Below, piece after piece: positions 19,603 to 61,440 of a stretch of DNA of 64,000 nt. Every line of letters starts with the position of its first letter. Position 1 is the first letter of the stretch. The stretch covers positions 192,001 to 256,000 of the forward strand of contig CAWDDT010000011.1 of the NCBI GenBank assembly GCA_963801165.1, given 5' to 3'. Origin of the DNA: an uncultured bacterium (lineage in GTDB: Bacteria; Actinomycetota; Acidimicrobiia; Spongiisociales; UBA5794). Both the position numbers and the translations under genes were made by a program. Under the pieces are notes generated by a model. That model was not told where the DNA came from. It did no database searches and saw only the letters and a program-made list of their open reading frames with translations.

Positions 19603-19605
19603 CGA

Positions 19606-21183: not shown

Positions 21184-21202
21184 GTGTACTCGTTTCCTCC
21201 TA

Positions 21203-23577: not shown

Positions 23578-23729
23578 GTTCTCTTCTCCCTCTGGGAGAA
23601 GTGCCTGAGCGAAGCGAAAGGCGATGAGGGCCGTGCAAATAGAGCGCTCACAACAGCACCCCCATTCCTTCCCCCTCTGGGGGGAAGTGCCTGAGCGAAG
23701 CGATAGGCGATGGGGGCCTTGTCCCTCAC
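23574..23729 (-). other. Repeat-derived relay ORF (51 aa) containing two family A repeats (23583-23718)
   Basis: The GTG overlaps the nuoJ stop (GTGA); [11 protein letters not shown]...[11 protein letters not shown]; the TGA overlaps the nuoK ATG (ATGA). Confidence 0.55.
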
Positions 23730-24750: not shown

Positions 24751-25742
24751 TACAGGACCACCTTCAGGGTCGCTGTGATCACGATGTTGAACAGAGCCAG
24801 CGGGATCAGCCACTTCCAGGCAATGGCCTGGAGCTGATCTTCCCGGATGCGGGGATAGGTCCACCGGATCCAGATCATGAGGAACGCCACAACGAAGATC
24901 TTGACCAGCAGGATGACCGGCCCGGCGAACTTGAGAGCATCGCTGCTCAAGCCGGGCGCCCAGTATCCGCCCAGATACAGCGTCGCGATGATGGCTCCCA
25001 TCGACACCATGCCGGCGTACTCGCCGAGGAAGAACATGGTGAAACGCAGACCCGAGTATTCGGTGAGATATCCCATGGTCAGCTCGGACTCGGCGAGCGG
25101 CAGATCGAATGGGGTGCGGTTGAGCTCGGCGAGGCTGGCGACGAGAAACACAACAAAGCCGATGATCTGGGGAACCACAAACGGCAGCGACGTGGCGGCC
25201 TGGGCGTTGACGATGCCGCTGAGCGACAGGGTGCCTGCCTCGATGACGACGGCGACAACGGCCAGTACCAGCGGCAGCTCGTAGGCGATGAGCTGGGCGC
25301 CGGCCCGAACTCCGCCGATCAGGGAGTATTTGTTGCCGGACGACCAACCGGCCATGAGCACGCCGAGGGTCGACAGCGAAGACACCGCCAGCAGGTAGAA
25401 GGCACCGATGTCGAGGTCGCGGGCGACGAGACTCGGCCCGATCGGGATCACGACGAACACGGCCAGCGTGCCCGCGATCATCACATAGGGGGCAAGCCGG
25501 AACACCGGACCGTCGGCGGCCGTCGGCACCAGATCCTCCTTCTGGAGGAACTTGACAGCGTCGGCGAGCGGTTGTGCCCATCCCCACCGGCCACCTGCGT
25601 ACCAGGGGCCGACCCGGGCCTGGATGTGGGCACCCCATTTCAGTTCACCCCAGATGAGTACGAGGGCCACTACCAGCATCGCCGCCAGCACGACGACCAC
25701 CTTGAAGGTGAGCATGAGAGCGAAGGGGACGTTCTCGATCAT
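24750..25742 (-). CDS. nuoH: NADH-quinone oxidoreductase subunit H (11-subunit cluster)
   Basis: [46 protein letters not shown]. Confidence 0.95.
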
Positions 25743-26935: not shown

Positions 26936-27582
26936 GAGCCCTCCTCCCCATCGGTCTCCTGGGCCGCGGCCTCGACATTCTCGACGGAGGGCATGTCCTC
27001 GACGTCGACGTGACCCGGCCACGGTTTCACCTCGCGGGCGCCGAGGGCGAACGACTTGCGCAAGGGATGGCCTTCGAACTCCTGCGGCAGGTAGAGCTTG
27101 ATGAGGTTGGGGTGACCGCGGAAGTCGATGCCGAACATCTCGGCGCATTCCCTCTCGTGCCAGGCCGCACCGGTGTACACGGGAACCAGGCTGTCGAGCC
27201 GGGCATCATCCTTGGCGAGGGTGGTGACCAGAATCGCGGCCGTGTCGGCAACGGGCGACGACAGCCGGCACAGCACCTCGTATCGCTCCTCGAGGTTGTC
27301 GACGTCTGCGGCCGGTTCTCCAACGGCCACCTCTTTCGACCAGTCGATGGCCGACAACCAGGAGAAGAACCCGAGCTCGGCTTCGTCCCGGGCGGTAATG
27401 GCGGCGTCGACCCACTTGTCACGGGTCACGTAGACGTGGACGGTACCGTTGTCCGCCGTCCAGCTCTCGGCGCCCACCCTGGCCGCCAGATCGGCGGCGA
27501 ACACGTCGAGCGAAGATACGCTTTCGAGCGCGGATACGCCTTCGAGAGGTGATTCGGCTGTCTCAGACGGGTTGTCGGTCAC
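26932..27582 (-). CDS. nuoC: NADH-quinone oxidoreductase subunit C (11-subunit cluster)
   Basis: [28 protein letters not shown]. Confidence 0.92.
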
Positions 27583-28060
27583 GCTCGGTCCACTTCTGCT
27601 GCGGGTCTTCACTCATGATCTTCTGCTGGAGAAGGATGATGCCCTCCATGAGCGCCTCGGGTCGCGGCGGGCAGCCGGGCACGTAGACATCGACCGGGAT
27701 GATCTGGTCGACACCGTTTGTGACCGAGTAGGAGTCCCAGTACGGGCCGCCACAGTTGGCACACGATCCCATCGAGATGACGTACTTGGGATCGGCCATC
27801 TGGTCGTAGAGACGTTTGATGGCAGGGGCCATCTTGTCGGTGACCGTGCCGGCAACAACCATGAGGTCGGCTTGCCGGGGCGATGCCGGGAACGGGATGA
27901 CCCCGAAACGCATCATGTCGAACCGGGGAGCCGCCGCCGCCATCATCTCGATGGCGCAGCAGGCGAGACCGAAGTTGAACATCCAGAGGCTGTATTTACG
28001 TGACCAATTGAGCAGCCACGACACCGGTTTGGGCGTGCCGAACTTGTCGATTACTCCCAC
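27563..28060 (-). CDS. nuoB: NADH-quinone oxidoreductase subunit B (11-subunit cluster)
   Basis: [32 protein letters not shown]. Confidence 0.95.
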
Positions 28061-28434
28061 TTGAGGACCCCTTTGCGGATCGCATAAACGAGTCCGAGCA
28101 GCAGGATGGCGATGAAGGCGAACATCTCGATGAGGATGTAACCGCCAAGGTCCGCGTTGGCGAACGCCTCGACCCGCAACGCCCACGGGAAGATGAAGAC
28201 CGCCTCGACATCGAAGACGAGGAACAAGAGGGCGAAGATGTAGTAGCGAATGTGGGTCTGGTTCCATCCGTCACCGGTGGCCACGATGCCGCACTCGTAG
28301 ATCTCGGACTTGGTGGGGTTCGGATTCTTGGGCCGAAGCAGCCCGGCGGTGACGAGCCCGACACCTACGAGGAGCGCTCCGCCAACGAGAAAGAAGGCGA
28401 CGGTGATGTAGTCACCGAAGTATTGGTCCAGCAC
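28051..28434 (-). CDS. nuoA: NADH-quinone oxidoreductase subunit A (11-subunit cluster)
   Basis: YECG, FLVFDVE, KGVLKW; GTG start with RBS. Confidence 0.93.
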
Positions 28435-28485
28435 CCAGGCCCCTTCCGTACGCTCCAAAAACGGGCCCTCCGACCCGCCCGGGCG

Positions 28486-41685: not shown

Positions 41686-41814
41686 TCCCCGGCACCCGAT
41701 CCATCGCTACGCGAATAACCCTCCCCCGGAGGGAGGGTGGGACGTGACGGCGGGCGGGCATTTCGAGCTTCGTAGCCGGGGGGCCGGGGTTCGTGGCATC
41801 ATGAGGTGGCTCCC

Positions 41815-46337: not shown

Positions 46338-47846
46338 CTAGAGGACGTAGTGCAGGGCGTTGAGAAGCGGCCAGGGCAGGACACCGAGGAGGATCGTGAG
46401 GCCTGCGGTGAGCAGGATGACAAACCCGGAGCTGCGAGTCATCCGTGGTACCGCCGTCGCGGTCCCGGGTGCCTCGGCCAGCACCGGGTCCTGGAAGTAC
46501 ATCAGCACGACTACCCGCAGGTAGAAGAACAAACCGGCGATCGAAGCAACCAGAGCCACGATCACCAGCCACAGGTAGCCCGCCGAGATCGCCTGAGTGA
46601 ATACGGCGAACTTCCCGACGAACCCGGAGAAGAACGGGATGCCACCCATGCCGAGCATGAACACCGCCAACGAGCCGGCGACCCACGGTGATCGAGCGAA
46701 GAGCCCCTGGTACGAATCGAAGTCGGACCGTCCCGAACGCACCCCGCTGACCACGCCGACGACGGTGAACGCACCCACCAGCGCAATGACGTAGGTGATC
46801 AGGTAGAACATGATCGAGGGAATGGCAACCGCTCCGTTGACGAATGCGGTGAGCATGAAACCGGCGTGCGCGACACTGGAGTACGCCAGCATCCGCTTCA
46901 GGTCCCTCTGCCCGATGGCACCCATCGTGCCCACCACGATCGAGAGCACGGCGATCAGCGCCAGGATGGGCGCCCAGTCGTTGATCCGGCTCGCAAACGC
47001 CCCCATCAGGATCCGGATGAGCGCCCCGATGGCGGCGACCTTCACCCCGGCGGCCATCAGCGACACCGAGCCGGAGGCAGCGCCCTGATAGACATCGGGT
47101 GCCCACTGATGGAACGGCGCGGCCGAGACCTTGAACGCCAGCCCGACGATGATGAGCGCGATACCGACAAGGAGAATGCTCACGTCGAGCATCACCACCG
47201 GTTGGGTGGAGAAGAACGACCTGATCCCTCCGGTGCCGTAGATCGTCACCGATCCGGTGGCGGCATACACCAGCGCAACGCCGTAAATGAACATCGCCGA
47301 GGCGAACGACCCGAGCAGGAAGTACTTGAGCGCCGCCTCGTCCGAGTTGCGCTCGACCCGAACGAAACCTGCGATCACATACAGTGCGATCGACGCCGTC
47401 TCGAGACCCATGAACAACAGGACGAGGTTCGACGACATGACCATCATGTGCAGACCGGCCGCCGCCAGCAGAACCAACGCCACGTACTCGGCACCCCGCT
47501 TGCCCAGAGTCGTGACCAGCTCCCAATTGCCGACGACGGCGAGGAACGCAATCAGGTAGACGGTCATACCGGCCAAAGCCGAGAAACGATCCATGACGAC
47601 CATCGGGTTGCTGATCGTCGAGGTGACGCCACGGGCCGAGAACGCCAATTCCCGGGCCGAGCCCAGCGAGTCGAGCCGTAGCCACTGCAACAGCGAGAGC
47701 ATCGACGCCACGACAAGAGCTACTACCCCGACCACACCCCATTCGCGGCGTTCCTGTCCCAGGGCTACCGCGCTCATCAGCACGAGCACGGCTCCAACGA
47801 GAACGGCTATCTCGGGTGCGATGGGCAGAAAAGCAATGTTCTCCAC
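46338..47846 (-). CDS. nuoN: NADH-quinone oxidoreductase subunit N (complete cluster)
   Basis: EAALKYFLLG, FKVSAAPFHQWAPDVYQGA, KRMLAYSSVAHAG. Confidence 0.95.
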   Translation of the reverse strand: MENIAFLPIAPEIAVLVGAVLVLMSAVALGQERREWGVVGVVALVVASMLSLLQWLRLDSLGSARELAFSARGVTSTISNPMVVMDRFSALAGMTVYLIAFLAVVGNWELVTTLGKRGAEYVALVLLAAAGLHMMVMSSNLVLLFMGLETASIALYVIAGFVRVERNSDEAALKYFLLGSFASAMFIYGVALVYAATGSVTIYGTGGIRSFFSTQPVVMLDVSILLVGIALIIVGLAFKVSAAPFHQWAPDVYQGAASGSVSLMAAGVKVAAIGALIRILMGAFASRINDWAPILALIAVLSIVVGTMGAIGQRDLKRMLAYSSVAHAGFMLTAFVNGAVAIPSIMFYLITYVIALVGAFTVVGVVSGVRSGRSDFDSYQGLFARSPWVAGSLAVFMLGMGGIPFFSGFVGKFAVFTQAISAGYLWLVIVALVASIAGLFFYLRVVVLMYFQDPVLAEAPGTATAVPRMTRSSGFVILLTAGLTILLGVLPWPLLNALHYVL

Positions 47847-49372
47847 TACTCACCACCTCCCACGCTTGCCAGATCCTGCGGCACACCGTATTGCGGCACC
47901 GTGTAGTCCGTCGATTGCTCGATGCGCTGCAGCACCTCGTTCACCGCCGGCTCGATGCGGTCGAGAGCCGGCTTCGGGTAGACACCCAGGACAAGGATGA
48001 GGACGGCGAGCGGAGCGATGATCAGCACCTCCCGCCTGTCGAGGTCGAGCAGCTTCTCGTTCTCCTTGTGGATCATCGGCCCGGTGAAAACTCGCTCGTA
48101 GGCCCACAGCAGGTAGACCGCAGCGAGGATCACCCCGGTGGCGGCGAGGACGGCGGCGACCGGGAATCGGAGGTAGGAGCCGAGCAGGATGTTGAACTCG
48201 CCTATGAACCCGTTGAGACCGGGCAGACCCGCCGAGGCGAAAACGGAGAACAGGAACAGACCGGCGAACACCGGCATCACCCTGGCGATGCCGCCGTAGT
48301 CGGAGATCTGCCTGGTGTGACGGCGCTCATAGATCATCCCGACAAGCAGGAACAGCGCACCGGTGGAGAGACCGTGATTGACCATCTGGATGACGCCACC
48401 GGTCAGACCCTGGCTGGTCATGGCAAAGATGCCGAGGATGATGAAACCGAGGTGGCTCACCGACGAGTATGCGACTAGTCGCTTCACATCTGGCTGGACG
48501 ATGGCAACCACCGCCCCGTAGATGATGCCGACGACGGCGAGAGCCGCCAGCCAGGGGGCGAAACGCACCGCGGCCTCGGGGAACAGGGTCAGGTTGAAGC
48601 GGATGAACCCGTACGTCCCCAGCTTCAGCAGGACACCGGCCAGCAGCACCGAACCGGCGGTGGGCGCTTCGGTGTGGGCATCGGGCAGCCACGTGTGGAA
48701 CGGGAAGATCGGCACCTTGACTGCGAAGGCGATGCCAAAAGCGAGGAACAGCCAGGTCTGCTGCGTCGAGGTGAGACCGACGTTGAGGATCTGGGTGAAA
48801 TCAAACGTACCGGCGATGACCCCGAGCCAGATGATGCCGGTGAGCATCAGCGCCGAGCCGAGTGCGGTGTATAGGAAGAACTTCACCGCGGCATAAACCC
48901 GGTTGCCGCTCCCCCAGATCCCGATCAACAGGTACATCGGGACGAGGGTGATCTCGAAGAACACAAAGAACAGCAGCAGGTCGAGCGCGACAAAGACCCC
49001 GAGCATCCCGGTCTCCAGTAGCAGCATCGCCACCATGTACATCTTCTGGTTCTTGGTGACCGACTTCGACGCTGCGATCGACAGGGGGAACAAGATGGCG
49101 GTCAGAGCCAGGAGCAGCAGCGAGATACCGTCGACACCGACGTTCCACGAGATGCCGAGCGGCTCGTACCACAGCACCTGCTGGGTGAACTGGTAGCCGG
49201 AAATGCCGACCTGGAACTCCCACAGCACGTAGCCGACCATCGCCAGCGGCAGGAAGCTGAGGGTCAGCGCCAGCGGGTAGACCAGCTCGGTGCGACGCTT
49301 GGGGATCAGGGCGACGACGAGCGCGGCGAGCGTCGGCAGCAACACCATGACGGCGAGAGTGGGAAAGGTCAC
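47846..49372 (-). CDS. nuoM: NADH-quinone oxidoreductase subunit M (complete cluster)
   Basis: AVKVPIFPFHTWLPDAHTEAPTAGS, KRLVAYSSVSHLG. Confidence 0.95.
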   Translation of the reverse strand: MTFPTLAVMVLLPTLAALVVALIPKRRTELVYPLALTLSFLPLAMVGYVLWEFQVGISGYQFTQQVLWYEPLGISWNVGVDGISLLLLALTAILFPLSIAASKSVTKNQKMYMVAMLLLETGMLGVFVALDLLLFFVFFEITLVPMYLLIGIWGSGNRVYAAVKFFLYTALGSALMLTGIIWLGVIAGTFDFTQILNVGLTSTQQTWLFLAFGIAFAVKVPIFPFHTWLPDAHTEAPTAGSVLLAGVLLKLGTYGFIRFNLTLFPEAAVRFAPWLAALAVVGIIYGAVVAIVQPDVKRLVAYSSVSHLGFIILGIFAMTSQGLTGGVIQMVNHGLSTGALFLLVGMIYERRHTRQISDYGGIARVMPVFAGLFLFSVFASAGLPGLNGFIGEFNILLGSYLRFPVAAVLAATGVILAAVYLLWAYERVFTGPMIHKENEKLLDLDRREVLIIAPLAVLILVLGVYPKPALDRIEPAVNEVLQRIEQSTDYTVPQYGVPQDLASVGGGE

Positions 49373-51249
49373 AAAACACCCCCCCGCAGGACCATGATCA
49401 AGATGATCCCGGCGGCACCGCCCAGAATCCCAAGTCCGTAGTTGCGAACGAGCCCGGTCTGGAGCGGCTTGGCGGCGGCAGCCAGCCGCTTCACCAGGAC
49501 GCCGACCCCGTTGACGACACCGTCGATGCCTTTGGCGTCGGCGGTGAAGGCCATCTGGTTGGCGGCAGCCTTGCCGGGAAGCACGAGCGTCTTGCCGTAC
49601 AGGTCATCGACGTAGTAGCCGTGCAGCACCGCGTCCCACACGCCGCCCGTCTCGGCGGGCGCCTCCCCGACCAGGAACCTGCGATAGGCGAAGTAGATGC
49701 CGGCCGCGGCGGCTGCCACCGAAGCTAGGGCCAGCACCCACGCCGTCGCCCCGTCGGGGGCGTTGGCCAGGTTGACGCCTTCGAAAGCCGGTTCCAGGAA
49801 ATGCTCCAGGCTCAACCGCCACGGTGTATTGATGAGCCCGCCCACCGCGGACAGAACACCGAGGGCGATGAGCGGAACGGTCATCGAGCCGGGCGACTCG
49901 TGCGGGTGGACCCCCTCGTCCCAGCGAGCCTCACCCCAGAAGGTGCGGAACATGAGCCTGCTCATGTAATAGGCGGTCAGACCGGCGGTGATCAGGCCGA
50001 TGGCCCACAGCACCACGAAATAGCCACCCTTGTTGAACGTGGCGCCGAGGATCTCGTCTTTGGACCAGAAGCCGGCGAACGGCGGTATACCGGAGATGGC
50101 CACCCAGGCAATCGCCATCGTGGCGAACGTCTTCGGCATGGCGCTGCGCAGCCCGCCCATCTTGTCCATGTCTTGCTCGCCGGACAGGGCGTGAATCACC
50201 GAACCTGCGCCGAGGAATAGCAGCGCCTTGAAGAACGCGTGGGTCATCAGGTGGAATATGCCCGCCGTATATGCGGCGACACCGACCCCCATGAACATGT
50301 ACCCGAGCTGGCTGATCGTCGAGTAGGCAAGCACCCGTTTGATGTCCTTCTGGGCGATCGCAATCGTGGCTGCGTACAGCGCGGTGATGGCACCGACGGT
50401 GGCGACCACCCCGGCCGAGAACGGGGCAAGCTCGAAGAGCGCCCCTGTGCGGGCGACCATGTAGACACCGGCGGTGACCATGGTGGCGGCATGGATGAGA
50501 GCCGACACCGGGGTCGGGCCTTCCATGGCATCCGGCAGCCACACATAAAGCGGCAACTGCGCCGACTTCCCGGTAGCCCCGAGCAGGAGCAGCAGCGTGA
50601 TCGCGGTGGCGGTCGTCCCCCCCGACTCGAGCAACCTGCCCGCGTTCGAGAAGACCGTGTCGAAACCGAGCGACCCGAAGGTGGCGAAGATCAGCATCAG
50701 CGCAATGATGAAACCGAAGTCGCCGATCCGGTTGACGATGAACGCCTTCTTCCCCGCAGCCGCTGCAGACGGCTTCTCGAACCAGAATGAGATCAGCAGA
50801 TAGGAGCAGAGGCCGACCAGCTCCCAGCCTATGAACAAGATGGCGAAGTTGGCGCCGAGCACGAGAATGAGCATCGATGCAAGGAACAGGTTCAGGTAGG
50901 CGAAGAAGCGCGGGTAGCGCTCGTCGCCGTGCATGTACCCGATCGAGTAGAGATGGATGAGCGAGCCCACCCCGGCGACGACCATCGCCATCACCGCCGA
51001 GAGGGGATCCCACAGGAACTCGGCCCTTATGCCCAGCCCCGGGATCCAGTCGAACAGGAACACTTGCTGGCCCTGGTGCCCGCCGGCGAAGAAGTCGGCG
51101 GCCGCGATGGCGATCACGACGAATGCGCCGGCGGCGAGCAACGTGGCGAGATAACCGGCACCAGGCTCCCCGATCCGCTTGCCGAACAGCAGGAGCAGAG
51201 CCGCCCCGAGAAGCGGGAGCGCCACCGCGATCCAGATGTAATCGACCAT
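49369..51249 (-). CDS. nuoL: NADH-quinone oxidoreductase subunit L (complete cluster)
   Basis: [42 protein letters not shown]. Confidence 0.95.
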   Translation of the reverse strand: MVDYIWIAVALPLLGAALLLLFGKRIGEPGAGYLATLLAAGAFVVIAIAAADFFAGGHQGQQVFLFDWIPGLGIRAEFLWDPLSAVMAMVVAGVGSLIHLYSIGYMHGDERYPRFFAYLNLFLASMLILVLGANFAILFIGWELVGLCSYLLISFWFEKPSAAAAGKKAFIVNRIGDFGFIIALMLIFATFGSLGFDTVFSNAGRLLESGGTTATAITLLLLLGATGKSAQLPLYVWLPDAMEGPTPVSALIHAATMVTAGVYMVARTGALFELAPFSAGVVATVGAITALYAATIAIAQKDIKRVLAYSTISQLGYMFMGVGVAAYTAGIFHLMTHAFFKALLFLGAGSVIHALSGEQDMDKMGGLRSAMPKTFATMAIAWVAISGIPPFAGFWSKDEILGATFNKGGYFVVLWAIGLITAGLTAYYMSRLMFRTFWGEARWDEGVHPHESPGSMTVPLIALGVLSAVGGLINTPWRLSLEHFLEPAFEGVNLANAPDGATAWVLALASVAAAAAGIYFAYRRFLVGEAPAETGGVWDAVLHGYYVDDLYGKTLVLPGKAAANQMAFTADAKGIDGVVNGVGVLVKRLAAAAKPLQTGLVRNYGLGILGGAAGIILIMVLRGGVL

Positions 51250-51251
51250 CG

Positions 51252-51557
51252 TCAGCCCTTCATCGCCGACAGCTCGTCGACGCTTGCGGTCGACCGTTTG
51301 TGGAACACCATGACGATGATGGCGAGACCGACCGTCACTTCGGCGGCGGCAACCACCACGACAAACAGAGTCGCCAGCTGCCCGTCGAGGTTGCCCTGCG
51401 CCTGGCCTGCTGCGACGAATGTCAGGTTGACGGAGTTGAGCATCAGCTCGATCGACATGAACATGATGAGCGCGTTGCGCCGCAGCAGCAGCCCGGCAGC
51501 GCCGAGCACGAACAAGACGGCGGCCAGGCTCATGTACCAGCCGGCGGTTACGGTCAT
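51252..51557 (-). CDS. nuoK: NADH-quinone oxidoreductase subunit K (complete cluster)
   Basis: [28 protein letters not shown]. Confidence 0.95.
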
Positions 51558-52141
51558 TGCTCACCTCCGGTCTCGACGGTTGGCTCGGCAGGGACGGCCT
51601 CCACCTCTGCCGGGGTTGGCTCGCCCTCATCTAGATCGCCGAGACGGCCCTGATAGCGGGCAAGCGCCACCGAGCCAACGGCGGCGACGGTGAGCAACAG
51701 GATGGTTGCCTGGAACGGGAGCATCCAGGTCCCGAACAAGGCGTCGGAGATCGCCTCGATGGTCCCCACCCTGGGCGGGAGACCCTCCTGGAGCACCCAC
51801 GCGCCGTGCCCGGCGATGAGGATCAGGATGATCAACCCGGCTGCGAGAACCGCGACAACGGGCCGCTGGAACGGGATCTTCTCGTCGGGGTCTTCGCGGC
51901 GATCAACGCCAATGAGCATGATGACGAACAGAAACAGGGTCATCACGGCCCCGGCATAGATGATCACCTGCACGGCGGCCACGAAGTGGGCATCCATCAA
52001 CACATAGAACACCGCCATCGACAACATCGTCAGCAGCAGACCCATTGCCGCGTAGACCGGGTTACGCGCCATGATGAGCGTCACCGCACCGATCAGGGCA
52101 GCAATGGCAAAGATGACAAAAACAAAGAGCTCAGCGTTCAC
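51554..52141 (-). CDS. nuoJ: NADH-quinone oxidoreductase subunit J (complete cluster)
   Basis: GTG AAC GCT start; [31 protein letters not shown]. Confidence 0.93.
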
Positions 52142-52493
52142 ATTCTTCTCCCTCTGGGAGAAGTGCCGAGCGCAGCAAAGGCGAGCCACTCTTTCCTTCT
52201 CCCTCTGGGAGAAGTGCCGAGCGCAGCGAAGGCGATGAGGGCCTCGCGAAGAAACGCCCTCCCCGACCCGGCCTGCGGCCCGTCGACCCCCCCAAAGGCA
52301 GGATGAACCTCTGGGAGAAGTGCCGAGCGCAGCAAAGGCGAGCCACTCTTTCCTTCTCCCTCTGGGAGAAGTGCCGAGCGCAGCGAAGGCGATGAGGGCC
52401 TCGCGAGAAAACGCCCTCCCCGACCCGGCCTGCGGCCGATAGACCATCCCAAAGGGAGGATGAGGGTGAGGGCCCGCCAAAAGCTGCGCTCAT
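52131..52493 (-). other. Repeat-derived relay ORF (120 aa) across four family A copies plus Y-like modules (52145-52474)
   Basis: The ATG overlaps the nuoI stop (TAATG); the ORF ends 11 nt into nuoJ; present in the ORF track. Confidence 0.55.
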
Positions 52494-53119
52494 TATCCAC
52501 CACCCCCCTCGCTTTGCCCGTGCTCCGGCGGCAGGTCGCCGTGGGTGGCCGACGGGGTCCAGCCGACCACGCCTTCGAACGCTGCCCGGCCACTAGGTGC
52601 AGTTGCCCGCATCCACCCCGAACCGAGCTTCAGCTCGTTGAGATCGATGAGGCGGTTCGCCTCCTGGGCATGGTTTGGTGTGCCGTCGGGCTCCACCAGC
52701 AGCTCGTCCCTGGTGTAGATCGAGTCGTTGCGGTTGGTGACCGACATCTCAAAGAGGTGGGTCATCGTTATCGCCTCGGTGGGGCACGCCTCGACGCACA
52801 TCGCACAGAAGATGCACCGCAGCATGTTGATCTCGTAGATGAACCCGTAGCGCTCACCCGGGCTCACCGGATCGTCCGGCGGGTTGTCGGCGCCGCGGAC
52901 ATAGATACAGCGGGCCGGGCAAACGCCGGCACACAGCTCACAGCCGATGCACTTCTCCATCCCGTCCGGGTAGCGGTTGAGCACGTGGCGACCGTGAAAA
53001 CGCTGCGGCTTCTCTCGCTTCTCGTCGGGGTATGACCGGGTCAATCGGGGGCGGCTCATCTGCCGCAGCGTCACCGCAAAGCCCCGGAACGGCCCCAACA
53101 TGTCGGCAAACCAGCCCAT
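52493..53119 (-). CDS. nuoI: NADH-quinone oxidoreductase subunit I (complete cluster)
   Basis: RFHGRH, CIGCELCAGVCP, CIFCAMCVEACP. Confidence 0.95.
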   Translation of the reverse strand: MGWFADMLGPFRGFAVTLRQMSRPRLTRSYPDEKREKPQRFHGRHVLNRYPDGMEKCIGCELCAGVCPARCIYVRGADNPPDDPVSPGERYGFIYEINMLRCIFCAMCVEACPTEAITMTHLFEMSVTNRNDSIYTRDELLVEPDGTPNHAQEANRLIDLNELKLGSGWMRATAPSGRAAFEGVVGWTPSATHGDLPPEHGQSEGGGG

Positions 53120-53123
53120 TATC

Positions 53124-54194
53124 TCAACTCCATGGCAGGCCCAGATCTCGCACGCCGAGCGAAACCGCGATCAACACGATCCACAACAGGCTGAACGGGA
53201 TGAGTCTCTTCCAGCCGAAGGACATCAGCTGGTCGTAGCGCATCCGGGGCAAAGACGCCCGGATCCACACAAACACAAACACCAGCAGGAAGGTCTTCAA
53301 CAAGAACCAGAAGATCGGGAACAGCCACGAGATCCACGACGGTGTCCCGAAGTCTGGACCGAGCCAGCCGCCGAGAAACAGGGTCGTAGTCAGCGCCGAG
53401 ATGTTGAAGATGTTGGCGTACTCGGCCAGGAAGAACATCGCAAACCGGAAGCCACCGTATTCGGTGTGGTAGCCGCCGACAATCTCGTTCTCGGCCTCGA
53501 CCAGATCGAACGGAGCCCGGTTGGTCTCGGCAACACCGGAGATGAAGAAGATAACGAACGACGGGATCAGGATCAGGTTCCACGCCGGGACGAAAGACAA
53601 GAAGCTGCTGCTGGAGAAGTAGCTGCCCATCTGCGCATCAACGATCCCGGTGAACGACGTGGAACCGGCAAACATGACCACCGGGACCAGGGCAAGACCC
53701 ATTGCCGCCTCGTATGAGATCATCTGAGCAGACGCCCGGACGGCGCCGAGCAACGGATACTTGGACCCGGACGCCCAACCGGCGAGCACGACTGCGTAAA
53801 CCGCAATCGACGACATCGCCAGCACGTAGAGCAGCGCAATGTTGAGGTCGGTGCCGGCGAGATTGATGACTCGATCGCCCAGTGTGAAGGGTCGCCCGAT
53901 CGGGATGACCATGAAGATGAGGATTGCCGGCACGAGCGCAGCGATCGGCGCCACCATGTACAAGCCGTACTCGACCTTGCGGGGAACCACCGGTTCCTTG
54001 AGGAGTAGCTTGACCCCGTCGGCGACCGTCTGGAGGATCCCGTACGGCCCGGCACGCATCGGCCCGATCCGATTCTGCATGTCGGCAACGATCTTGCGCT
54101 CGAACCACACCAGGATGATCACGGTCAGCAGCACCAGGGCAAAGACGGCGACCGCCTTGATGGCGGCTTCGACGAGGAGTGCCCATCCGCTCAC
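53124..54194 (-). CDS. nuoH: NADH-quinone oxidoreductase subunit H (complete cluster)
   Basis: ERKIVADMQNRIGP, AQMISYE, AETNRAPFDLVEAE. Confidence 0.95.
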   Translation of the reverse strand: MSGWALLVEAAIKAVAVFALVLLTVIILVWFERKIVADMQNRIGPMRAGPYGILQTVADGVKLLLKEPVVPRKVEYGLYMVAPIAALVPAILIFMVIPIGRPFTLGDRVINLAGTDLNIALLYVLAMSSIAVYAVVLAGWASGSKYPLLGAVRASAQMISYEAAMGLALVPVVMFAGSTSFTGIVDAQMGSYFSSSSFLSFVPAWNLILIPSFVIFFISGVAETNRAPFDLVEAENEIVGGYHTEYGGFRFAMFFLAEYANIFNISALTTTLFLGGWLGPDFGTPSWISWLFPIFWFLLKTFLLVFVFVWIRASLPRMRYDQLMSFGWKRLIPFSLLWIVLIAVSLGVRDLGLPWS

Positions 54195-56611
54195 GACGCA
54201 CCTCCCGGAGTGACAGTGACCGCAACGGCAGCCCCGAGCGCGGCTGTCCCGGGGAGGTTGGCGGGCACATATACGGTACCGTCGCCGAGCGAGTTGTCGA
54301 CGGCGACGGGCAGGACGACGCTGCTGGCATCCCCGGCGATGGTCACCGGCGACCCCGGCTCGATGCCCAGAGCCTCGATCTCGGCTTGGTTCAGGTAGGC
54401 GGCCGCGTCGGGGATGAGAGCTGCCAACGACGGGCTCTTGCGCACCTTGACACCGTCGTCGTACAAGACACGGGCAAGATGCAGACCGAACCGGGCCTCG
54501 ACCGGCTTGATGCTCCCGCTGACCGGGATGTACTCGAGCGGTTGCTCGCCGTCTTCGAGCGGGAGCAGCAGACCTTCCCGACCCTCGCCCCAGTCGAGAT
54601 CGTCCCATGAGACACCGTGATAGGCGGGAGCCACGGTTGCTATCTCTTTGCTGATGGCCGCAGCCGACGTCGCTCCGAGGGTTCCACCCATGCGCCGGGC
54701 CAGGTCATCGAGAAGCGACCACGTCGGTCTGGTCTGACCGGGGCCGGGGACGAGCCGGTTCACCTTCTGGATCCGGCCTTCGATATTGGTGACCGTGCCT
54801 TCCACCTCAGCAAACCCGACGACGGGGAACACCACATCGGCGAGGGCGGATGAGTCGGTGAGGAAGGTGTCGATGGCAACGACAAAAGCAGCCGCCTCGA
54901 GACACGCTCTGGCCAGGGTGGGCTCGGGATGGTCTCGAACGGGGTCGGTGCCGAGCATGACCAGGGCCTGCAAATCACCGTCGCGAAGGCCTTCGAGAAT
55001 GCTGGTGGCGTTCCTCCCCAGACCTTCGGGGAGCGGCCCCCATTCGGCCTCGAGCGTGTGATGAGCGCTGGTCTCGGAGACGCGCCCCGGGAGCAAGGTC
55101 GGGGCCAGACCCATATCGAGGGCCCCCATGACGTTGCCCCGCCTGGCGAGCGGCAAGATCTTGCCATCGGTGAGGTCCCGGCCAAAGGCGGCGACCCCCT
55201 CGGCGAGCCTGGGGTCTTCGCCGAGCCCGGTCCGACCGACGATGGTGACGACCGGACCGTCGTTGAGCGCTTCCCGGATCACTCCGTAGTCTCCGCCGCC
55301 GGCGGCGAGCGCCTGCAGCACATCGGGCCCGGTGCCGGGACGGTAACGAACTTTGTGGGTGGCGACGTCGTCGAGACCGGTGCGCCGGGGGTGAACGACG
55401 ATGAGGGTGGCTCCCAGCTCGGCGGCAGCGCGGCGCACCCGCAGGTAGAGAACCGGGTATTCCTCCTTCAGGTCGGCCGCCCACAGGAGGATGGTCCTGG
55501 CGGTCTCCAGGTCGCTGATGGCGGCCCGCGGCGTCGCCCCGACGAGGAATTGTGGGTCGAGCCCATCGTCGAGCTGAGCATCGACGTGAGGGGTAACCAC
55601 GATCGTCCGGAGGAACTTGCCGAACATGAAGGCTTCCTCGTTGGTGCTGTTGGCGCCGCCGAGACCCGCCACCTGCTCGCCCGGATAGGAGGTCAGCCGC
55701 TCCGCTACCAGATCGAGCGCATCGCCCCAGGTCGCTTCACGGAACTCACCGTCTTGCTTGATCAGAGGTGTGGTCAGCCGATCCTCGCTGTGGATCGCCT
55801 CGAAGACGAACCGATCCTTGTCGGAGAGCCAACCCTGGTTAGTGGCGTCGTTGTCGACGCCGTCGATGCGAACCACGCGATTCTGGCTCGACTCGACCGA
55901 CACCCTCGAGCCGACCGAGTCGACCAGCGAAACGCTCTCGACGGCCTCGAGATCCCAGGGGCGTGCCTTGAACCGGTACGGCTTGGCGGTCAATGCGCCT
56001 ACCGGGCAGATCTGCACGGTGTTGCCGGAGAAGTAGGAGTTGAACGGCTCGCCCGGGAAGGTGAGGACCTGCACCTGGTTGGCACGGTCCTGGAACTCGA
56101 TCAGCGGGTCGCCGGAGATCTCCTCCGAGAATCGGGTGCAACGGGCACAGAGGATGCAGCGCTCCCGGTCGAGCAGCACCAGGTCGGAGATCGGGATCGG
56201 CTTCTCGAAATGCCGCTTCTCCTCAACGAACCTGCTCTCGCCCGGTCCGTAGGCGAGGGTTTGATCCTGGAGCGGGCACTCCCCTCCCTTGTCACAAACG
56301 GGACAATCGAGCGGGTGGTTGATGAGCAGATACTCGAGGACACCCTCCTGGACCTTCTTGACAACGGCGGACTGTGTGTCGACGACCATCCCCTCGTTGA
56401 CCCGGGCCGTACAGGAGGGCATCAACATCTTGCCGCGGGGCCCTTCGACCTCGACGAGGCACATGCGGCACATCCCGACCGGCTTCATTCGCGGGTGCCA
56501 GCAGAAATGGGGGATGTACACGCCGTTGTCCACGGCGACCTTGATCAGCACCTCGCCGGCGGGCCCTTGCATTTCGACCCCGTCGACGGTGATGGTCACC
56601 TGGTCAGCCAT
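54191..56611 (-). CDS. nuoG: NADH-quinone oxidoreductase subunit G
   Basis: IPHFC, CRMCLVE, NHPLDCPVCDKGGECPLQD, CILCARCTRF, CPVGALT. Confidence 0.95.
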   Translation of the reverse strand: MADQVTITVDGVEMQGPAGEVLIKVAVDNGVYIPHFCWHPRMKPVGMCRMCLVEVEGPRGKMLMPSCTARVNEGMVVDTQSAVVKKVQEGVLEYLLINHPLDCPVCDKGGECPLQDQTLAYGPGESRFVEEKRHFEKPIPISDLVLLDRERCILCARCTRFSEEISGDPLIEFQDRANQVQVLTFPGEPFNSYFSGNTVQICPVGALTAKPYRFKARPWDLEAVESVSLVDSVGSRVSVESSQNRVVRIDGVDNDATNQGWLSDKDRFVFEAIHSEDRLTTPLIKQDGEFREATWGDALDLVAERLTSYPGEQVAGLGGANSTNEEAFMFGKFLRTIVVTPHVDAQLDDGLDPQFLVGATPRAAISDLETARTILLWAADLKEEYPVLYLRVRRAAAELGATLIVVHPRRTGLDDVATHKVRYRPGTGPDVLQALAAGGGDYGVIREALNDGPVVTIVGRTGLGEDPRLAEGVAAFGRDLTDGKILPLARRGNVMGALDMGLAPTLLPGRVSETSAHHTLEAEWGPLPEGLGRNATSILEGLRDGDLQALVMLGTDPVRDHPEPTLARACLEAAAFVVAIDTFLTDSSALADVVFPVVGFAEVEGTVTNIEGRIQKVNRLVPGPGQTRPTWSLLDDLARRMGGTLGATSAAAISKEIATVAPAYHGVSWDDLDWGEGREGLLLPLEDGEQPLEYIPVSGSIKPVEARFGLHLARVLYDDGVKVRKSPSLAALIPDAAAYLNQAEIEALGIEPGSPVTIAGDASSVVLPVAVDNSLGDGTVYVPANLPGTAALGAAVAVTVTPGGAS

Positions 56612-57887
56612 GCGCCACCTCCTTGCCGACCCGTGCCTCGACTTCGTCACGGAAATACTTCATCAGCGACATCACCGGTGCCGTGGCGGAGGGGCCGAGC
56701 GGGCAGATGGTGGTCATGGCGGGCGGCCAGGTGAGCCCGGGGCTGATGCCGTCGGAGACGTCGAGAAGCAGGTCGACGTCTTCCGGGCGTCCCTGCCCGG
56801 TGAGGATCCGGTTGAAGATGCGCTCGAGCCAGCTGCAGCCTTCCCGGCAGGGCGTGCACTGGCCGCACGACTCGTGGGCGTAGAAGCGGACGATCCGGTG
56901 CGCCGCGGCGATGACGTCGGTGGTGTCGTCCATGACGATGATGGCGCCGGACCCCATCATCGAGCCGTTCTTGCCCACGTCGTCGATGGTGACGGGTGTA
57001 TCGAGGTGCTCGTCGGGCACGAACCAGGGTGCGGATGAACCACCGGGAATCCAGGCCTTCAGCCCCCGGTCCTCGCGGATTCCGCCGCCGATCCCGTAGA
57101 TGAGGTCACGCCAGCTCATCCCCATCACGATCTCGTAGTTGCCCGGATTCTTGACGTGACCCGAGAGCGAGATCATCCGGGTTCCGGCCGACTTCTCGGG
57201 ACCGATGGCGGCGTAGGCGAGACCGCCGTTGTTGACGATCCACGGCACGTTCGACAGGGTTTCGACGTTGTTGACGACCGTTGGCTTGGCGTAGAGACCC
57301 TCGACCGCAGGAAACGGCGGCTTCAGCCGGGGCTCGCCACGACGCCCTTCGAGACTGTTCAGCAGAGCCGACTCCTCACCACAGATGTAGGCGCCTGCGC
57401 CGAGATGGACCGTGATCTCGAGGTCGAACCCGCTGCCGAGGATGTCCGAACCGAGGTAGCCCTTCCCATACGCCTCGTCAACGGCGTGCTGCAACCGGCG
57501 TGCCGGCTTCGGATACTCGCCGCGGATGTAAATGAAGGCGTGATTCACACCGACGGCATACGAGGTGAGGATGACGCCTTCGACGAGCTGGTGTGGGTCC
57601 CTCTCCAGCAGCTGGCGGTCCTTGAACGTTCCCGGTTCGGACTCGTCGCCGTTGACGACCAGGTACGCCGGCTTGGCGGGGGCGAGGAACCCCCACTTGA
57701 CACCCGCGGGAAAGTTGGCACCGCCCCGACCGCGGATGTTCGAGGCCTTCACTTGTTCCGCAACCTTCTCCGGCGCCATCTCGAGCAAGCCCTTGCGCAG
57801 CGCGGTGTAACCGCCGGTCGCCTCATAACGCTCGATGGTGTGACTGTCGGTGCGGTTCGCCTCCATCCGCTCGGTGAGTATCTTCAT
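56604..57887 (-). CDS. nuoF: NADH-quinone oxidoreductase subunit F
   Basis: GRGGANFPAGVKW, NGDESEPG, GAGAYICGEE, ESCGQCTPCREG. Confidence 0.96.
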   Translation of the reverse strand: MKILTERMEANRTDSHTIERYEATGGYTALRKGLLEMAPEKVAEQVKASNIRGRGGANFPAGVKWGFLAPAKPAYLVVNGDESEPGTFKDRQLLERDPHQLVEGVILTSYAVGVNHAFIYIRGEYPKPARRLQHAVDEAYGKGYLGSDILGSGFDLEITVHLGAGAYICGEESALLNSLEGRRGEPRLKPPFPAVEGLYAKPTVVNNVETLSNVPWIVNNGGLAYAAIGPEKSAGTRMISLSGHVKNPGNYEIVMGMSWRDLIYGIGGGIREDRGLKAWIPGGSSAPWFVPDEHLDTPVTIDDVGKNGSMMGSGAIIVMDDTTDVIAAAHRIVRFYAHESCGQCTPCREGCSWLERIFNRILTGQGRPEDVDLLLDVSDGISPGLTWPPAMTTICPLGPSATAPVMSLMKYFRDEVEARVGKEVAHG

Positions 57888-57955
57888 CTTCCCTCTCCCT
57901 CTGGGAGAGGATGGCGAGCGAAGCGAAGCCAGGTGAGGGCCTTGTGCGTACTCAT
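57884..57955 (-). other. Repeat-derived relay ORF (23 aa) containing one family A repeat (57888-57941)
   Basis: MSTHKALTWLRFARHPLPEGEGR*; ATGA overlap with the nuoE stop and ATGA overlap with the nuoF start. Confidence 0.6.
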
Positions 57956-58608
57956 CCCACCTCCCTGGATGACCCGTATGGGCCGAAGGCGGGGATAGGG
58001 AGGAAGGAGCCTTCGGTCCCGGCGACGCCCCAATCGAAGGATCGCTTGCCACCGAAGAGTTGCTGCATCTCGTCGCCGTTGACCACGTCGGGGCCACCGT
58101 CGCGCAGCCAACGGACCAGCTCACGGGCCTTGTCCGGGGTGACACCCTCGATCATCTCGTAGTTGACCAGGACCACCGGGGCGCCGCCGCAGGCACCGTT
58201 GCATTCGACGTGCTCGACAGAGAACTTGCCGGCGCCACCGGTCTCGCCGTCGGGCACTCCCGATTCGTCTTCGATCGCGGCCAGGACGTCGTCGGCACCA
58301 ACCAGGAAGCACGAGATGGAAGTACACACCGACACCAGGTAGTCGCCGAGCTCCTCGCGTTTGTACATCGAGTAGAAGCTGGCAACGGATTGCACCTGGG
58401 CGCCGGTTAGCCCGGTCAGCACCCCGACCGCCTTCATCCCTGCCGCGGTCACGTATCCATGCTCGAGCATCGCGATGTATAGCAGAGGCATCACCGCCGA
58501 GCGGCGCACCGGGTACTTCCCCAGAATCTCGGCGGCGAGCCGCTGCGAGTCCTCGCTCCAGTCGCGGATCGCCTCGAGCTCCGCTGCCGTCAATTCGACT
58601 GCCTTCAT
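57952..58608 (-). CDS. nuoE: NADH-quinone oxidoreductase subunit E
   Basis: RSAVMPLL, VASFYSMY, CTSISC, ECNGAC. Confidence 0.95.
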   Translation of the reverse strand: MKAVELTAAELEAIRDWSEDSQRLAAEILGKYPVRRSAVMPLLYIAMLEHGYVTAAGMKAVGVLTGLTGAQVQSVASFYSMYKREELGDYLVSVCTSISCFLVGADDVLAAIEDESGVPDGETGGAGKFSVEHVECNGACGGAPVVLVNYEMIEGVTPDKARELVRWLRDGGPDVVNGDEMQQLFGGKRSFDWGVAGTEGSFLPIPAFGPYGSSREVG

Positions 58609-60041
58609 CGGTCCACATCTCCCAGGACGGGGTCGGTCGATGCGATGGTGGCCACGATGTCGGCGACGAGGGAGCCGGTCATCATGGTGGGGAGGGCCTG
58701 CACGTGATTGAAGGACGGCGTTCTGGCGTGCAGCCGCCAGGGTTTCTCCCGTCCGTCCGAGACGATGTACATGCCGAGCTCGCCGCGAGGCGATTCGACC
58801 GCGGCGTAGGTCTCGCCTGCAGGAACCTTATAGCCGCTGGTAAACAACTTGAAGTGGTGGATCAGCGCCTCCATGGATTCGTCGATCCGTTTCCGGGGCG
58901 GCGGGGTGATCTTGCGGTCGAGGGTGCGGTAATCGCCTGCGGGCATCGTCTCCAGCACCTGCCGCACGATACCGAAAGACTGTTTCATCTCCTCCATCCG
59001 CACCAGGTAGCGGTCCCAGACATCGCCGTGCTTCCCCACGGGAACCTCGAAGTCGTACTTGTCGACCCCGCTATACGGCAAGGCCTTGCGGAGATCCCAT
59101 TTGATACCGGAGGCGCGGGCAATCGGGCCCGTGACGCCGAGAGCCCGGCACTCCTCAGGGGTGATGACCCCGACGCCCATGGTCCGATCCTGGAAGATGG
59201 GGTTGCCGTTGAACAGCTCTTCGTATTCACCGATCCCCTGCCCGACCTTGTCGATGAGGGTCTCGATGTCGTCTTCCCAACCGTCGGGGAGGTCGGCGGC
59301 CACGCCACCGGGCCGGATGTAGTTGTGGTTCATCCGCAGACCGGTCGTCTTCTCGAAGAAATCGAGGATGTACTCCCGATCGCGGAAACCGTAGATGAGC
59401 ATCGATACGGCGCCGAGGTCGGTGCACTGGGTGGCGGCCCAGACCAGGTGGCTGGAGACCCGGTTCAACTCGGTCATGAGCACCCGGATCGCCTGGGCAC
59501 GCTCGGGTATCTCGATGCCCAGCAGCGATTCAACCGCCAGCGAGAAAGCAAGCTCCATGTGCAGCGGAGAAAGGTAGTCCATCCGGGTGACGTTGGTGGC
59601 GCCCTGCATGTAGGTCAGCGTCTCACCGGTCTTCTCCATGCCGGTGTGGAGGTACCCGATGATCGGCTTGACCCGGCGGATCGTCTCCCCGTCCAGCTCG
59701 AGTTGGAGACGGAGCACGCCATGGGTGGAGGGATGCTGCGGGCCCATGTTGAGGATCTGGAGCTCGTCAGGATCCGTGGCCTCTTCGAATTCGAAGTCGT
59801 CGTCGACAACCGTGCCCCGGGACAGCCGTAGCGCCGGGTCGCTGCCGGCGTCGAGCATCTCCTGCGACTGCTCGTCGGTGTAGTTGCCCATCCATTCCGG
59901 CTCTTCGGTACCGGCCACCCACAGGTCGTGGAGGTGGCGGCGCTCCTCGGCGCCGATCGACTCTGAGGTGCCGACTTCCTCCGGCTTGTCGATGCCGGTC
60001 GCCTCGAAATCTCCGGTTACTACGTTCGGCGTGTCACTCAT
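58605..60041 (-). CDS. nuoD: NADH-quinone oxidoreductase subunit D (complete cluster) with acidic N-terminal extension
   Basis: NMGPQHPSTHGVLRL, GYLHTGMEK, ESPRGELG, GDVDR. Confidence 0.95.
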   Translation of the reverse strand: MSDTPNVVTGDFEATGIDKPEEVGTSESIGAEERRHLHDLWVAGTEEPEWMGNYTDEQSQEMLDAGSDPALRLSRGTVVDDDFEFEEATDPDELQILNMGPQHPSTHGVLRLQLELDGETIRRVKPIIGYLHTGMEKTGETLTYMQGATNVTRMDYLSPLHMELAFSLAVESLLGIEIPERAQAIRVLMTELNRVSSHLVWAATQCTDLGAVSMLIYGFRDREYILDFFEKTTGLRMNHNYIRPGGVAADLPDGWEDDIETLIDKVGQGIGEYEELFNGNPIFQDRTMGVGVITPEECRALGVTGPIARASGIKWDLRKALPYSGVDKYDFEVPVGKHGDVWDRYLVRMEEMKQSFGIVRQVLETMPAGDYRTLDRKITPPPRKRIDESMEALIHHFKLFTSGYKVPAGETYAAVESPRGELGMYIVSDGREKPWRLHARTPSFNHVQALPTMMTGSLVADIVATIASTDPVLGDVDR

Positions 60042-60532
60042 GTTGTCTTTGGTGATTCCTTGAAGCGGACCGGCACGGAGCCAACACCGTAGTCCTTGCG
60101 TAGCGGATAGCCCTCCCAGTCGTCGGGGAGGACGATACGGGTCAGGTCCGGATGCCCGGAGAACACGATGCCGAACAGATCGAAGGCTTCCCGCTCGTAG
60201 AAGTTGGCCCCGGGAAAGATCTCCGTGATCGAGGGAACGGTGGGATCCGCCGCAGGTACGCCGACCCTGATCCGCAGGCGGCACACATGCTCGTGCGAGA
60301 GCAGGTTGAGGACCACCTCGAACCGCGGCTTGCGGTGGAGGTAGTCGACACCACACAGGTCGGCGAACACGTTGAAGCCGACGTCGCGGGCCGCAGTGAC
60401 GAGGGGGACGTACTGCTCCAAAGATGGGCGAGCGACGTCCTGGTTGGAGTCGAGCACCTGCTCGAACGCGACGTCGGGAAAGCGGCCGCTGAGCCGGGTG
60501 ACCACGTCCTGGCTCATCCCGTCCTGGCTCAT
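60038..60532 (-). CDS. nuoC: NADH-quinone oxidoreductase subunit C (complete cluster)
   Basis: [35 protein letters not shown]. Confidence 0.93.
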
Positions 60533-60999
60533 CGTACGATCTCCCCGGCCATCACTTTGTCTTGAAGCATGAGGATGCCGTGCATCAACGACTGCGGTCC
60601 TGGAGGGCACCCGGGAACGTAGACGTCGACGGGAACCACCTCGTCCACACCCTGGACGAGGGCGTAGTTGTTGAACATGCCACCCGTCGACGCACACGCG
60701 CCCATGGAGATGACCCACTTCGGCTCGGACATCTGGTCATATACCTGACGCAGCACCGGCGCCATCTTCTGCGACACGCGGCCTGCGACGATCATCAGAT
60801 CCGCCTGGCGTGGCGAAGCCCGGAAAACCTCCATGCCGAAGCGAGCTAGGTCGTTGTGGGCAGCACCAGTCGCCATCATCTCGATGGCACAACAAGCGAG
60901 GCCAAAGGTCGCAGCCCACATGGATCGGGTTCGAGTCCAGTTGATTGCGGCCTCGTAGGTGGTGAGGAGGAACCCCGAGGGACCGGATCTATGCGCCAT
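60529..60999 (-). CDS. nuoB: NADH-quinone oxidoreductase subunit B (complete cluster)
   Basis: [28 protein letters not shown]. Confidence 0.95.
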
Positions 61000-61440
61000 C
61001 TATGCCGCTTCCTCCCCCGAGTCGCCACCGACGACAGACTCGGTCGGTGCGACTACCCGACGGTAACGCTGCCGCTGGGCCACGTTCCAGTCGAGAGCTC
61101 CTCGCTTCCAGACGTAGACCAGGGTCTCGATCACCAGCGCCACGAAGATGCCCATGGCCCCGATGCCTGCCCAGCCGAATTCCTGCCAGCGGACCGCCCA
61201 CGCAAACAGGAAGATGATCTCCACATCGAAGATGACAAAGAGCATCGCCACCAGATAGAACTTGACCGGGAACCGCTGGGCCGGCTCTTGGAGAGGGACG
61301 ATGCCGCACTCGTAGGGAGCGAGTTTCTCAGGCGTGGGCTTCTTGGGAGCCACCAGCCGCGAGATGGTGAGGCTGATGACGGCGAACCCTGCGGCCACGA
61401 CAAAGGCGATCGCGATCGGCAGATAGTCGGACAATGTCAT
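61000..61440 (-). CDS. nuoA: NADH-quinone oxidoreductase subunit A (complete cluster)
   Basis: PYECG, RFPVKFYLVAMLFVIFDVE, WKRGALDW. Confidence 0.95.
   Translation of the reverse strand: MTLSDYLPIAIAFVVAAGFAVISLTISRLVAPKKPTPEKLAPYECGIVPLQEPAQRFPVKFYLVAMLFVIFDVEIIFLFAWAVRWQEFGWAGIGAMGIFVALVIETLVYVWKRGALDWNVAQRQRYRRVVAPTESVVGGDSGEEAA

Follow-up and report, generated by a model that had tools for sequence, protein, structure and literature searches.

We have analyzed a 64,000-nucleotide (nt) window of DNA from an uncultured bacterium of the class Acidimicrobiia (genome G000, 64% G+C; contig C11:192001-256000), in which copies of a short hairpin repeat, here termed family A, lie between genes of two complex I (nuo) operons. 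At these junctions the repeat is carried by a short open reading frame (ORF) that begins on the stop codon of the upstream gene and ends on the start codon of the downstream gene, or a few nucleotides within that gene. Insert-free relatives have overlapping stop and start codons at the same junctions, and across the surrounding clade many insertions, mostly unrelated to one another, are biased toward the one frame that creates such a relay. We consider it probable that family A copies at coupled junctions form relay mini-ORFs, so that the hand-over of ribosomes by termination and reinitiation survives the insertion.

A first-pass annotation of the window had described four cases, grading them as suggestive with odds of one in three for each, and had proposed that the repeats are tolerated because ribosome hand-over is preserved. 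The coordinates and overlaps of all four are as it gave them. The proposal itself is now supported by ancestral NTGA overlaps, by 32 relays among 72 insertions compared with 4 and 5 in shifted controls, by a bias in insert length, and by the indels found in orthologous inserts.

Structure of the repeat-bearing junctions

The gene caller used here relies on codon statistics (coding potential) alone and makes no use of overlap information. On the minus strand of the window it finds two complex I operons, the 14-gene nuoA-N operon (61434..46338) and a second operon of 11 genes without nuoEFG (28458..18067), whose nuoJ and nuoK we call nuoJ2 and nuoK2. Its starts for nuoF, nuoK2, nuoJ and midA agree with those of the first-pass annotation, and the first three are confirmed by conserved N-termini in relatives. 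Pfam confirms the names of the genes flanking all four cases. Features described below are on the minus strand unless marked otherwise.

The family A unit is ~51 nt long and reads, on the gene-sense strand, GGCCCTCA-TCGCCTTCGCT-TCGCTCGGCAC-TTCTCCC-AGA-GGGAGAA-GGA. It is predicted to form a hairpin with a stem of 8-9 bp and a 3-nt loop, present in both the minimum-free-energy and the centroid structures. The window contains ten copies, full or partial. The hairpin core gives 13 pattern matches compared with 0.18 in shuffled sequence, where palindromic copies are counted on both strands and one match lies outside family A. The core repeat had been said to lack stop codons in any sense frame, and this holds closely. 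Stops occur in 0, 1 and 5 of 60 full-length copies in the three sense frames, and in 23, 26 and 6 of the 60 in the antisense frames, although these counts amount to one observation rather than sixty since all copies descend from one consensus.

The junction between nuoE (57952..58608, PF01257) and nuoF (56604..57887, PF01512 and PF10589, with the start MKILTERM kept in relatives) exhibits the relay in its simplest form. The stop codon of nuoE is the TGA at 57952-57954, lying within ATGA, and the ATG of this tetranucleotide opens a mini-ORF of 23 codons (MSTHKALTWLRFARHPLPEGEGR, 57884..57955). The mini-ORF terminates with a TGA placed on the nuoF start, again as ATGA, with the nuoF ATG at 57887. 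Both ends and the length are just as first described. Within the mini-ORF lies one family A copy (57889..57941) with the hairpin CCTCTCCC-AGA-GGGAGAGG, the 3' arm of which is Shine-Dalgarno-like and ends 4 nt ahead of the nuoF ATG.

An equally exact relay joins nuoJ2 (23726..24292, PF00499) to nuoK2 (23272..23577, PF00420, with the conserved start MIINQFLL), confirming the earlier description. Here 51 codons (23574..23729) run from GTGA to ATGA, crossing two family A copies (23582-23632 and 23665-23718, together spanning 23582..23718) in different frames. The last 16 nt of nuoJ2, including the GTGA, are duplicated between the two copies.

The third nuo junction is a near-relay. Following nuoI (52493..53119, 4Fe-4S dicluster domains), an ORF of 120 codons (52131..52493) starts at TAATG on the nuoI stop, spans a 351-nt composite insert and ends 11 nt within nuoJ (51554..52141, PF00499), which starts with GTG at 52141. 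This overlap had been correctly reported. The ATG of the ORF is the ancestral nuoJ start (TAATGA), and after the TAA of nuoI the ancestral TGA is found in frame; in same-genus relatives nuoJ begins ATGAAC at an ATGA overlap with nuoI. The insert has a second open frame of 151 amino acids (52138..52593), which ends exactly on the nuoJ GTGA and has GTG codons 5 and 8 nt ahead of the nuoI stop. Four family A copies (52143..52400, namely 52143-52184, 52193-52243, a partial copy at 52308-52341, and 52350-52400) sit within two 157-nt composite units. Directly ahead of nuoJ is the sequence ATGTGA (window 52141-52146, minus strand), a one-codon start-stop ORF whose TGA overlaps the nuoJ GTG.

At these three junctions a GGAG contributed by the hairpin's 3' arm (GGGAGAGG or GGGAGAAG) stands 6-8 nt ahead of the nuoF, nuoK2 and nuoJ starts, and the 3' end of the 16S RNA carries CCTCC. 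The repeat is read in differing frames, giving PLPEGEGR in some copies and RHFSQREK in others, as had been pointed out. No Pfam match was found for the three repeat-borne ORFs scanned. A further exact relay borne by family A lies outside the window, on contig C6, between an acyl-CoA carboxyltransferase gene and a gene for a 51-amino acid membrane protein.

The fourth case stands only at its downstream end. An ORF of 33 codons (15819..15920) containing one family A copy (15867-15916) places its TGA on the GTG of a midA-like methyltransferase gene (14788..15822, PF02636) at 15822, as GTGA, and its frame is open back to a GTG at 15974. The candidate upstream ORF (15917-16177, 86 amino acids) lies within a divergent spacer and is not called by the coding-potential caller. 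The ATGA linking it to the 33-codon ORF belongs to the 5' flank of the repeat itself, where CATGAGGCCCTC recurs in other copies. We have therefore rejected this case as a relay between two genes. A scan of the midA/padR divergent spacer for promoter-like sites gave none. The same spacer contains, on the plus strand, an ORF of 113 codons (15984-16325) carrying two plus-strand family A copies, which stops 1 nt short of the GTG of a padR-family gene (16327-16674).

In insert-free relatives, NTGA stop/start overlaps are found at all three nuo junctions. For nuoE/nuoF these are NTGA or TGATG overlaps, for example ...TCATGAAGATCCTCACC... with ATGA. At nuoJ2/nuoK2 the genomes of 11 of 20 relatives have an NTGA or TGATG overlap, and at nuoI/nuoJ six of seven same-genus genomes have ATGA. 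The tetranucleotide is duplicated so as to flank the inserts, at times with 10-27 extra bases. Thus the filled nuoE/nuoF site has ATGA...ATGA where empty sites have one ATGA, the filled nuoJ2/nuoK2 site has GTGA, GTGA and ATGA together with the 16-nt duplication, and at nuoI/nuoJ the first bases of nuoJ (ATGAGCGC) are repeated at the head of the 120-codon ORF. With the junction duplicated on both sides, the mini-ORF thus opens at the codon that once started the downstream gene, and keeps the ribosome-binding site that served it. In all, four family A junctions occupy a former stop/start site, these being nuoE/F, nuoI/J, nuoJ2/K2 and the carboxyltransferase/small-protein pair.

Reading frame of insertions across the clade

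The nuo operons of relatives were modeled by tblastn with the G000 proteins, taking as the downstream start the start codon closest to that projected by homology. Junctions were classed by fixed rules, and four loci were dropped as duplicates. The operons, some of them partial, were divided at a gap in NuoH identity (~59% and above versus 53% and below) into a close clade of 74 and a distant clade of 39. These provide 735 and 272 junctions respectively, of which 413 and 102 overlap by 4 or 1 nt, and 90 and 69 are spacers of at least 16 nt. Some of the spacers (18 close, 27 distant) are in the frame of the downstream gene, and are probably longer N-termini. This leaves 72 close and 42 distant insertions out of the downstream frame.

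In the close clade 32 of the 72 insertions are exact relays, drawn from 23 operons and 12 junction types. Of the remainder, ten are in the relay frame and end elsewhere, nine occupy the third frame, and in 21 the upstream stop has no start codon on it. Clustering by similarity divides the 72 inserts into 62 groups, so that they are mostly unrelated. Deleting 1 or 2 nt in silico at the midpoint of each insert reduces the number of relays from 32 to 4 and 5 (chi-square, p = 1e-8). The lengths of the 90 spacers are distributed over the three residue classes modulo 3 as 13, 54 and 23 (p = 2e-7), and the relay frame exceeds the third frame by 42 to 9 (p = 3e-6). Genome G027, flagged as unpublished, accounts for three of the relays as well as for one case in the relay frame and one lacking a start, and without it the proportion is 29/67. 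G038, likewise unpublished, contributes a single in-frame case. A Shine-Dalgarno core is found ahead of 22 of the 32 mini-ORF starts and 19 of the 32 downstream starts, compared with 185 of 279 at plain overlaps in the clade.

The distant clade gives a different result. One of its 42 insertions is an exact relay, with 5 and 1 in the shifted controls; five are in the relay frame ending elsewhere, one is in the third frame and 32 have no start on the upstream stop, while three extra spacers are in the frame of the downstream gene with a stop codon ahead of its start. With in-frame cases set aside, spacer lengths are uniform modulo 3 (13, 17 and 12).

The nuoJ2/nuoK2 junction provides an independent replicate, since nine genomes have inserts there belonging to several families. 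Exact relays are found in G000, G007, G028 and G029, and in G001, G033 and G026 the insert is in the relay frame and ends 7-10 nt within nuoK. Inserts that are orthologous retain the frame while changing in length. That at nuoE/nuoF measures 64, 70 and 49 nt in G000, G005 and G002, differing by 6 and 15, and in G005 the start of the mini-ORF has shifted from ATGA to TGATG. An insert at nuoG/nuoH common to two metagenome-assembled genomes (MAGs) is 160 nt in one and 94 nt in the other, the difference comprising a 65-nt duplication and a 1-nt indel. Thus the frame is kept through indels of 6, 15 and 65+1 nt.

Within G000 we have examined family A at all its locations. An nhmmer search returned 130 hits, 88 of which pass E<1e-3, with tandem arrays of 2-5 units. 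These 88 lie between co-oriented genes in the sense (31 hits) or antisense (22) orientation, between convergent (19) or divergent (8) genes, and inside called genes (8). Eight co-oriented spacers of 16-400 nt contain sense copies alone. Three of these are exact relays and one is near, and in the other four the upstream stop carries no start codon. When the eight are frame-shifted, 0 and 1 relays result, and five spacers with antisense copies give none. If longer spacers are included there are 17 co-oriented spacers with a sense copy, and the relays remain three and one. The first-pass annotation had held that every sense copy between co-oriented genes forms a relay. This is true of the three nuo junctions, two exactly and one nearly, but with three exact and one near among eight spacers genome-wide it is a property of the window and not of family A.

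For background, G000 has 2879 co-oriented adjacent gene pairs, of which 662 have a short overlap, of 4 nt in 565 and of 1 nt in 97. When intergenic ORFs of any sequence are considered, 92 are open in the relay frame and 46 in that taken as neutral, and exact relays number 44 compared with ~17 expected; four of the G000 relays are repeat-borne. There is also a spike of 47 mini-ORFs whose end falls precisely 4 nt beyond the next start, compared with 1-7 at adjacent offsets. We do not accept this as a fair stand-alone test, because a start codon followed by A creates TGA at that position in 37-39% of genes. The enrichment seen with the frame-based comparisons above is smaller.

Proposed ribosome hand-over and alternative explanations

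Our proposed mechanism is as follows. As the anatomy shows, the upstream copy of the duplicated junction retains the former start codon and its ribosome-binding site, and these now open the mini-ORF. With sense frames free of stops and an insert length of 1 modulo 3, the TGA of the mini-ORF overlaps the true start of the next gene. A ribosome that has finished the upstream gene would restart on the mini-ORF and melt the hairpin, the 3' arm of which (GGGAGAGG) is Shine-Dalgarno-like and lies 6-8 nt ahead of the next start, before terminating on that start and reinitiating there. Coupled, equimolar translation of the complex I subunits would thereby survive the insertion, and the peptide would be irrelevant. 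Both the translation of the mini-ORFs and selection on the termination-reinitiation hand-over are inferred from the frame bias together with the established coupling at -4 overlaps (PMC12548453).

A number of observations weigh against this interpretation. Translation of the mini-ORFs is deduced from sequence. In the close clade the upstream stop bears no start codon in 21 of the 72 insertions, and nine insertions are in the third frame. The downstream starts are projections from homology, the division into close and distant clades was chosen post hoc with the data already seen, and the p-values overstate the evidence because the genomes are related to one another and are for the most part draft MAGs. 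Most family A copies in G000 are found in spacers of an ordinary kind (between convergent genes, 19; between divergent genes, 8; antisense, 22), and the eight eligible spacers yield three exact relays and one near. For relays of any sequence in G000 the enrichment is modest, 51 compared with 34 and 24 in deletion controls, and some of these are real small genes; one of the peptides, we presume, resembles ribosomal protein S14. Folding of the junction region is no better than that of shuffled sequences (z = -0.01). Lastly, two of the nine inserts at nuoJ2/nuoK2 break the pattern, with an in-frame fusion of 167 codons in G014, and in G005 a mini-ORF that stops ~50 nt early next to a frameshifted nuoJ end. 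The latter could be operon decay or an assembly error. G005 is the closest relative; in its 11-subunit operon (locus L169, ~1230-1560) the nuoJ end has shifted frame in comparison with its kin, and the insert, in which the mini-ORF stops ~50 nt short of nuoK, is 234 nt long.

If the relays were a neutral by-product, an element that duplicates NTGA and is free of stops would generate them in one third of insertions by chance, and the cases in the window would reflect luck and survivorship. The junction tetranucleotide is indeed duplicated and the sense frames are stop-free, the eight family A spacers give no more than the three exact relays and one near, and 32 of 72 is a mild excess over the ~24 expected from a flat third. 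Yet frame-shifted versions of the very same sequences yield 4 and 5 relays rather than 32, and chance would not predict a ratio of 42 to 9 between the relay and third frames, the concentration of 54 of 90 spacer lengths in one residue class, or orthologous inserts whose lengths change by multiples of 3 or by 65+1. The absence of bias in the distant clade also speaks against it, and we regard a neutral origin as improbable. Somewhat more credible, although still unlikely, is that translation of the insert serves to protect a C-rich, G-poor stretch from Rho-dependent termination or RNases and has no part in hand-over, the relay frame being favored only since in the other frames the next protein would be lengthened or its start overrun. 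Judged by eye, the 5' two-thirds of the repeat are C-rich and G-poor on the sense strand. It is also common for a near-relay to finish 7-11 nt into the following gene, as in 10 of the 90 close-clade spacers and three of the nine inserts at nuoJ2/nuoK2, and the fusion in G014 is tolerated. Protection alone would have no need of exact overlaps, yet ORFs that overlap both neighbors by 4 or 1 nt form the commonest class (32/72), and the ancestral state is itself an overlap. Shielding from Rho or RNases may, however, add to hand-over.

Alphaproteobacterial nuo/nqo operons hold unidentified reading frames, and it might be supposed that the mini-ORFs code for micro-proteins with a function, for example as small accessory subunits in complex I, particularly as some of the relay ORFs are 40-120 codons long. 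We reject this as very improbable indeed. One repeat is read in different frames, the peptides are of low complexity and unrelated between genomes (62 clusters for 72 inserts), those that are orthologous diverge freely, and the three ORFs scanned gave no match in Pfam.

A more speculative extension of ribosome hand-over, which we offer as a long shot, is that coupling by reinitiation is near-obligatory for complex I operons in this order of Acidimicrobiia, filtering inserts to 1 modulo 3, and that repeats, family A among them, act as evolvable dials of stoichiometry. If so, the Shine-Dalgarno sequence hidden in the hairpin would be opened only by a translating ribosome, and copy number and hairpin strength would set the passage of ribosomes from NuoE to NuoF, NuoI to NuoJ and NuoJ to NuoK.

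Natural variation alone indicates that the frame of intercistronic 'junk' is under selection across a whole clade. Provided that hand-over is what is selected, this would be evidence, on the scale of populations, for the importance of stop/start ribosome hand-over to a large membrane complex. Spacer length modulo 3 would serve as a cheap computational marker of coupled junctions. For annotation, such short ORFs should not be entered as proteins.

Relation to known elements and other repeats in the genome

Mycobacterial interspersed repetitive units (MIRUs) were reportedly described by Supply et al. in 1997. MIRUs insert at start codons, and the ORF of the unit is coupled with -4 spacing, which 'likely' permits insertion with minimal effect (PMC12548453). 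They are 40-100 bp in length, are present in 40-50 copies, have tetranucleotide direct repeats at filled sites, and contain an ORF whose ends overlap its neighbors within a polycistronic transcript (PMC3184786). The idea put forward in the first-pass annotation is therefore not novel, being the published reading of MIRUs (PMC12548453). The relay architecture is already known from MIRUs, and the clade-wide frame statistic is the new part; a limited literature search found no such test of intercistronic insertions.

Family A is like the MIRUs in consisting of short dispersed units, present in tens of copies and frequently in tandem, that are located between genes of one operon with tetranucleotide direct repeats at filled sites. 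The ends of the unit ORF overlap the stop and start of its neighbors, exactly at nuoE/F, nuoJ2/K2 and the C6 junction, and by 11 nt at nuoI/J. Both occur in the phylum Actinomycetota, although the class Acidimicrobiia differs. The likeness seen is one of architecture, and family A is therefore classed as an analogue rather than a sequence member. It differs further in being a REP-like hairpin with copies mostly in ordinary spacers, in that the 3' arm of the hairpin supplies a Shine-Dalgarno-like sequence too, and in that the frame rule here spans many unrelated inserts across a clade. The concept of the MIRU, drawn from a single genus of pathogens, is thereby widened to take in uncultured Acidimicrobiia and many inserts unrelated to one another.

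Other known systems share individual features. On either side the mini-ORF overlaps its neighbor by 4 or 1 nt, as in termination-reinitiation coupling at ATGA and TGATG overlaps (PMC12548453), but the relay would place two hand-overs in series by way of a non-functional ORF, and coupling is here deduced from geometry and frame bias. Synthetic bicistronic designs and translational couplers (PMC12548453) likewise use a short leader ORF that ends on the start of a gene to bring ribosomes through structured RNA, whereas the nuo relay is natural, born of a repeat, and placed between two genes rather than at the 5' end. Rickettsia palindromic elements and other in-frame repeat fusions (PMC3184786) survive in translated sequence by staying open, which may be compared with the recC units below, but they join a protein, whereas the nuo copies form separate, disposable ORFs. 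With REP and BIME elements, which are associated with RAYT transposases, family A has in common a short GC-rich dispersed hairpin, arrays, and occurrence in both orientations. REPs are not described as translated couplers in the literature consulted. The RAYT transposase domain (PF01797) gave no match in G000, which is 98% complete, although it matched in 6 of 14 genomes serving as positive control, and family A is therefore not a RAYT-type REP.

Family A is found within the coding sequence of recC (1192 amino acids; PF04257 at residues 2-278, RecC_C at 891-1123), in which four tandem antisense units lie in frame (contig C4:850258-850520; locus L172, ~1259-1521). They encode IPSPSGRGPERSEGGEGLVVPSD-like repeats, and the TGA of the antisense consensus is altered to GGTGAG. 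Contig C7 of G000 contains an array of 948 nt (C7:182288-183236) made up of four 229-nt units with one sense family A copy each. One frame of the array stays open over 486 codons, beginning at a start codon placed on the upstream stop and reaching 512 nt into the next called gene, the model of which is uncertain.

The window contains further repeats. A larger composite family occupies 33520-35740 and 40520-41750, with units of ~110-190 nt that include several G/C-rich hairpins such as GATCCCCCCGAAATGGGGGGATC. It is present in at least 10 copies in both orientations, with inverted pairs of up to 129 nt at 84% identity. An Rfam scan of the window gave no match to the family A repeat, and found three consecutive tRNA genes at 2184-2511 on the minus strand. 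At 3572-3689 the 15-nt sequence CCGCGCCAGACTGGT is repeated perfectly in tandem in ~7 copies.

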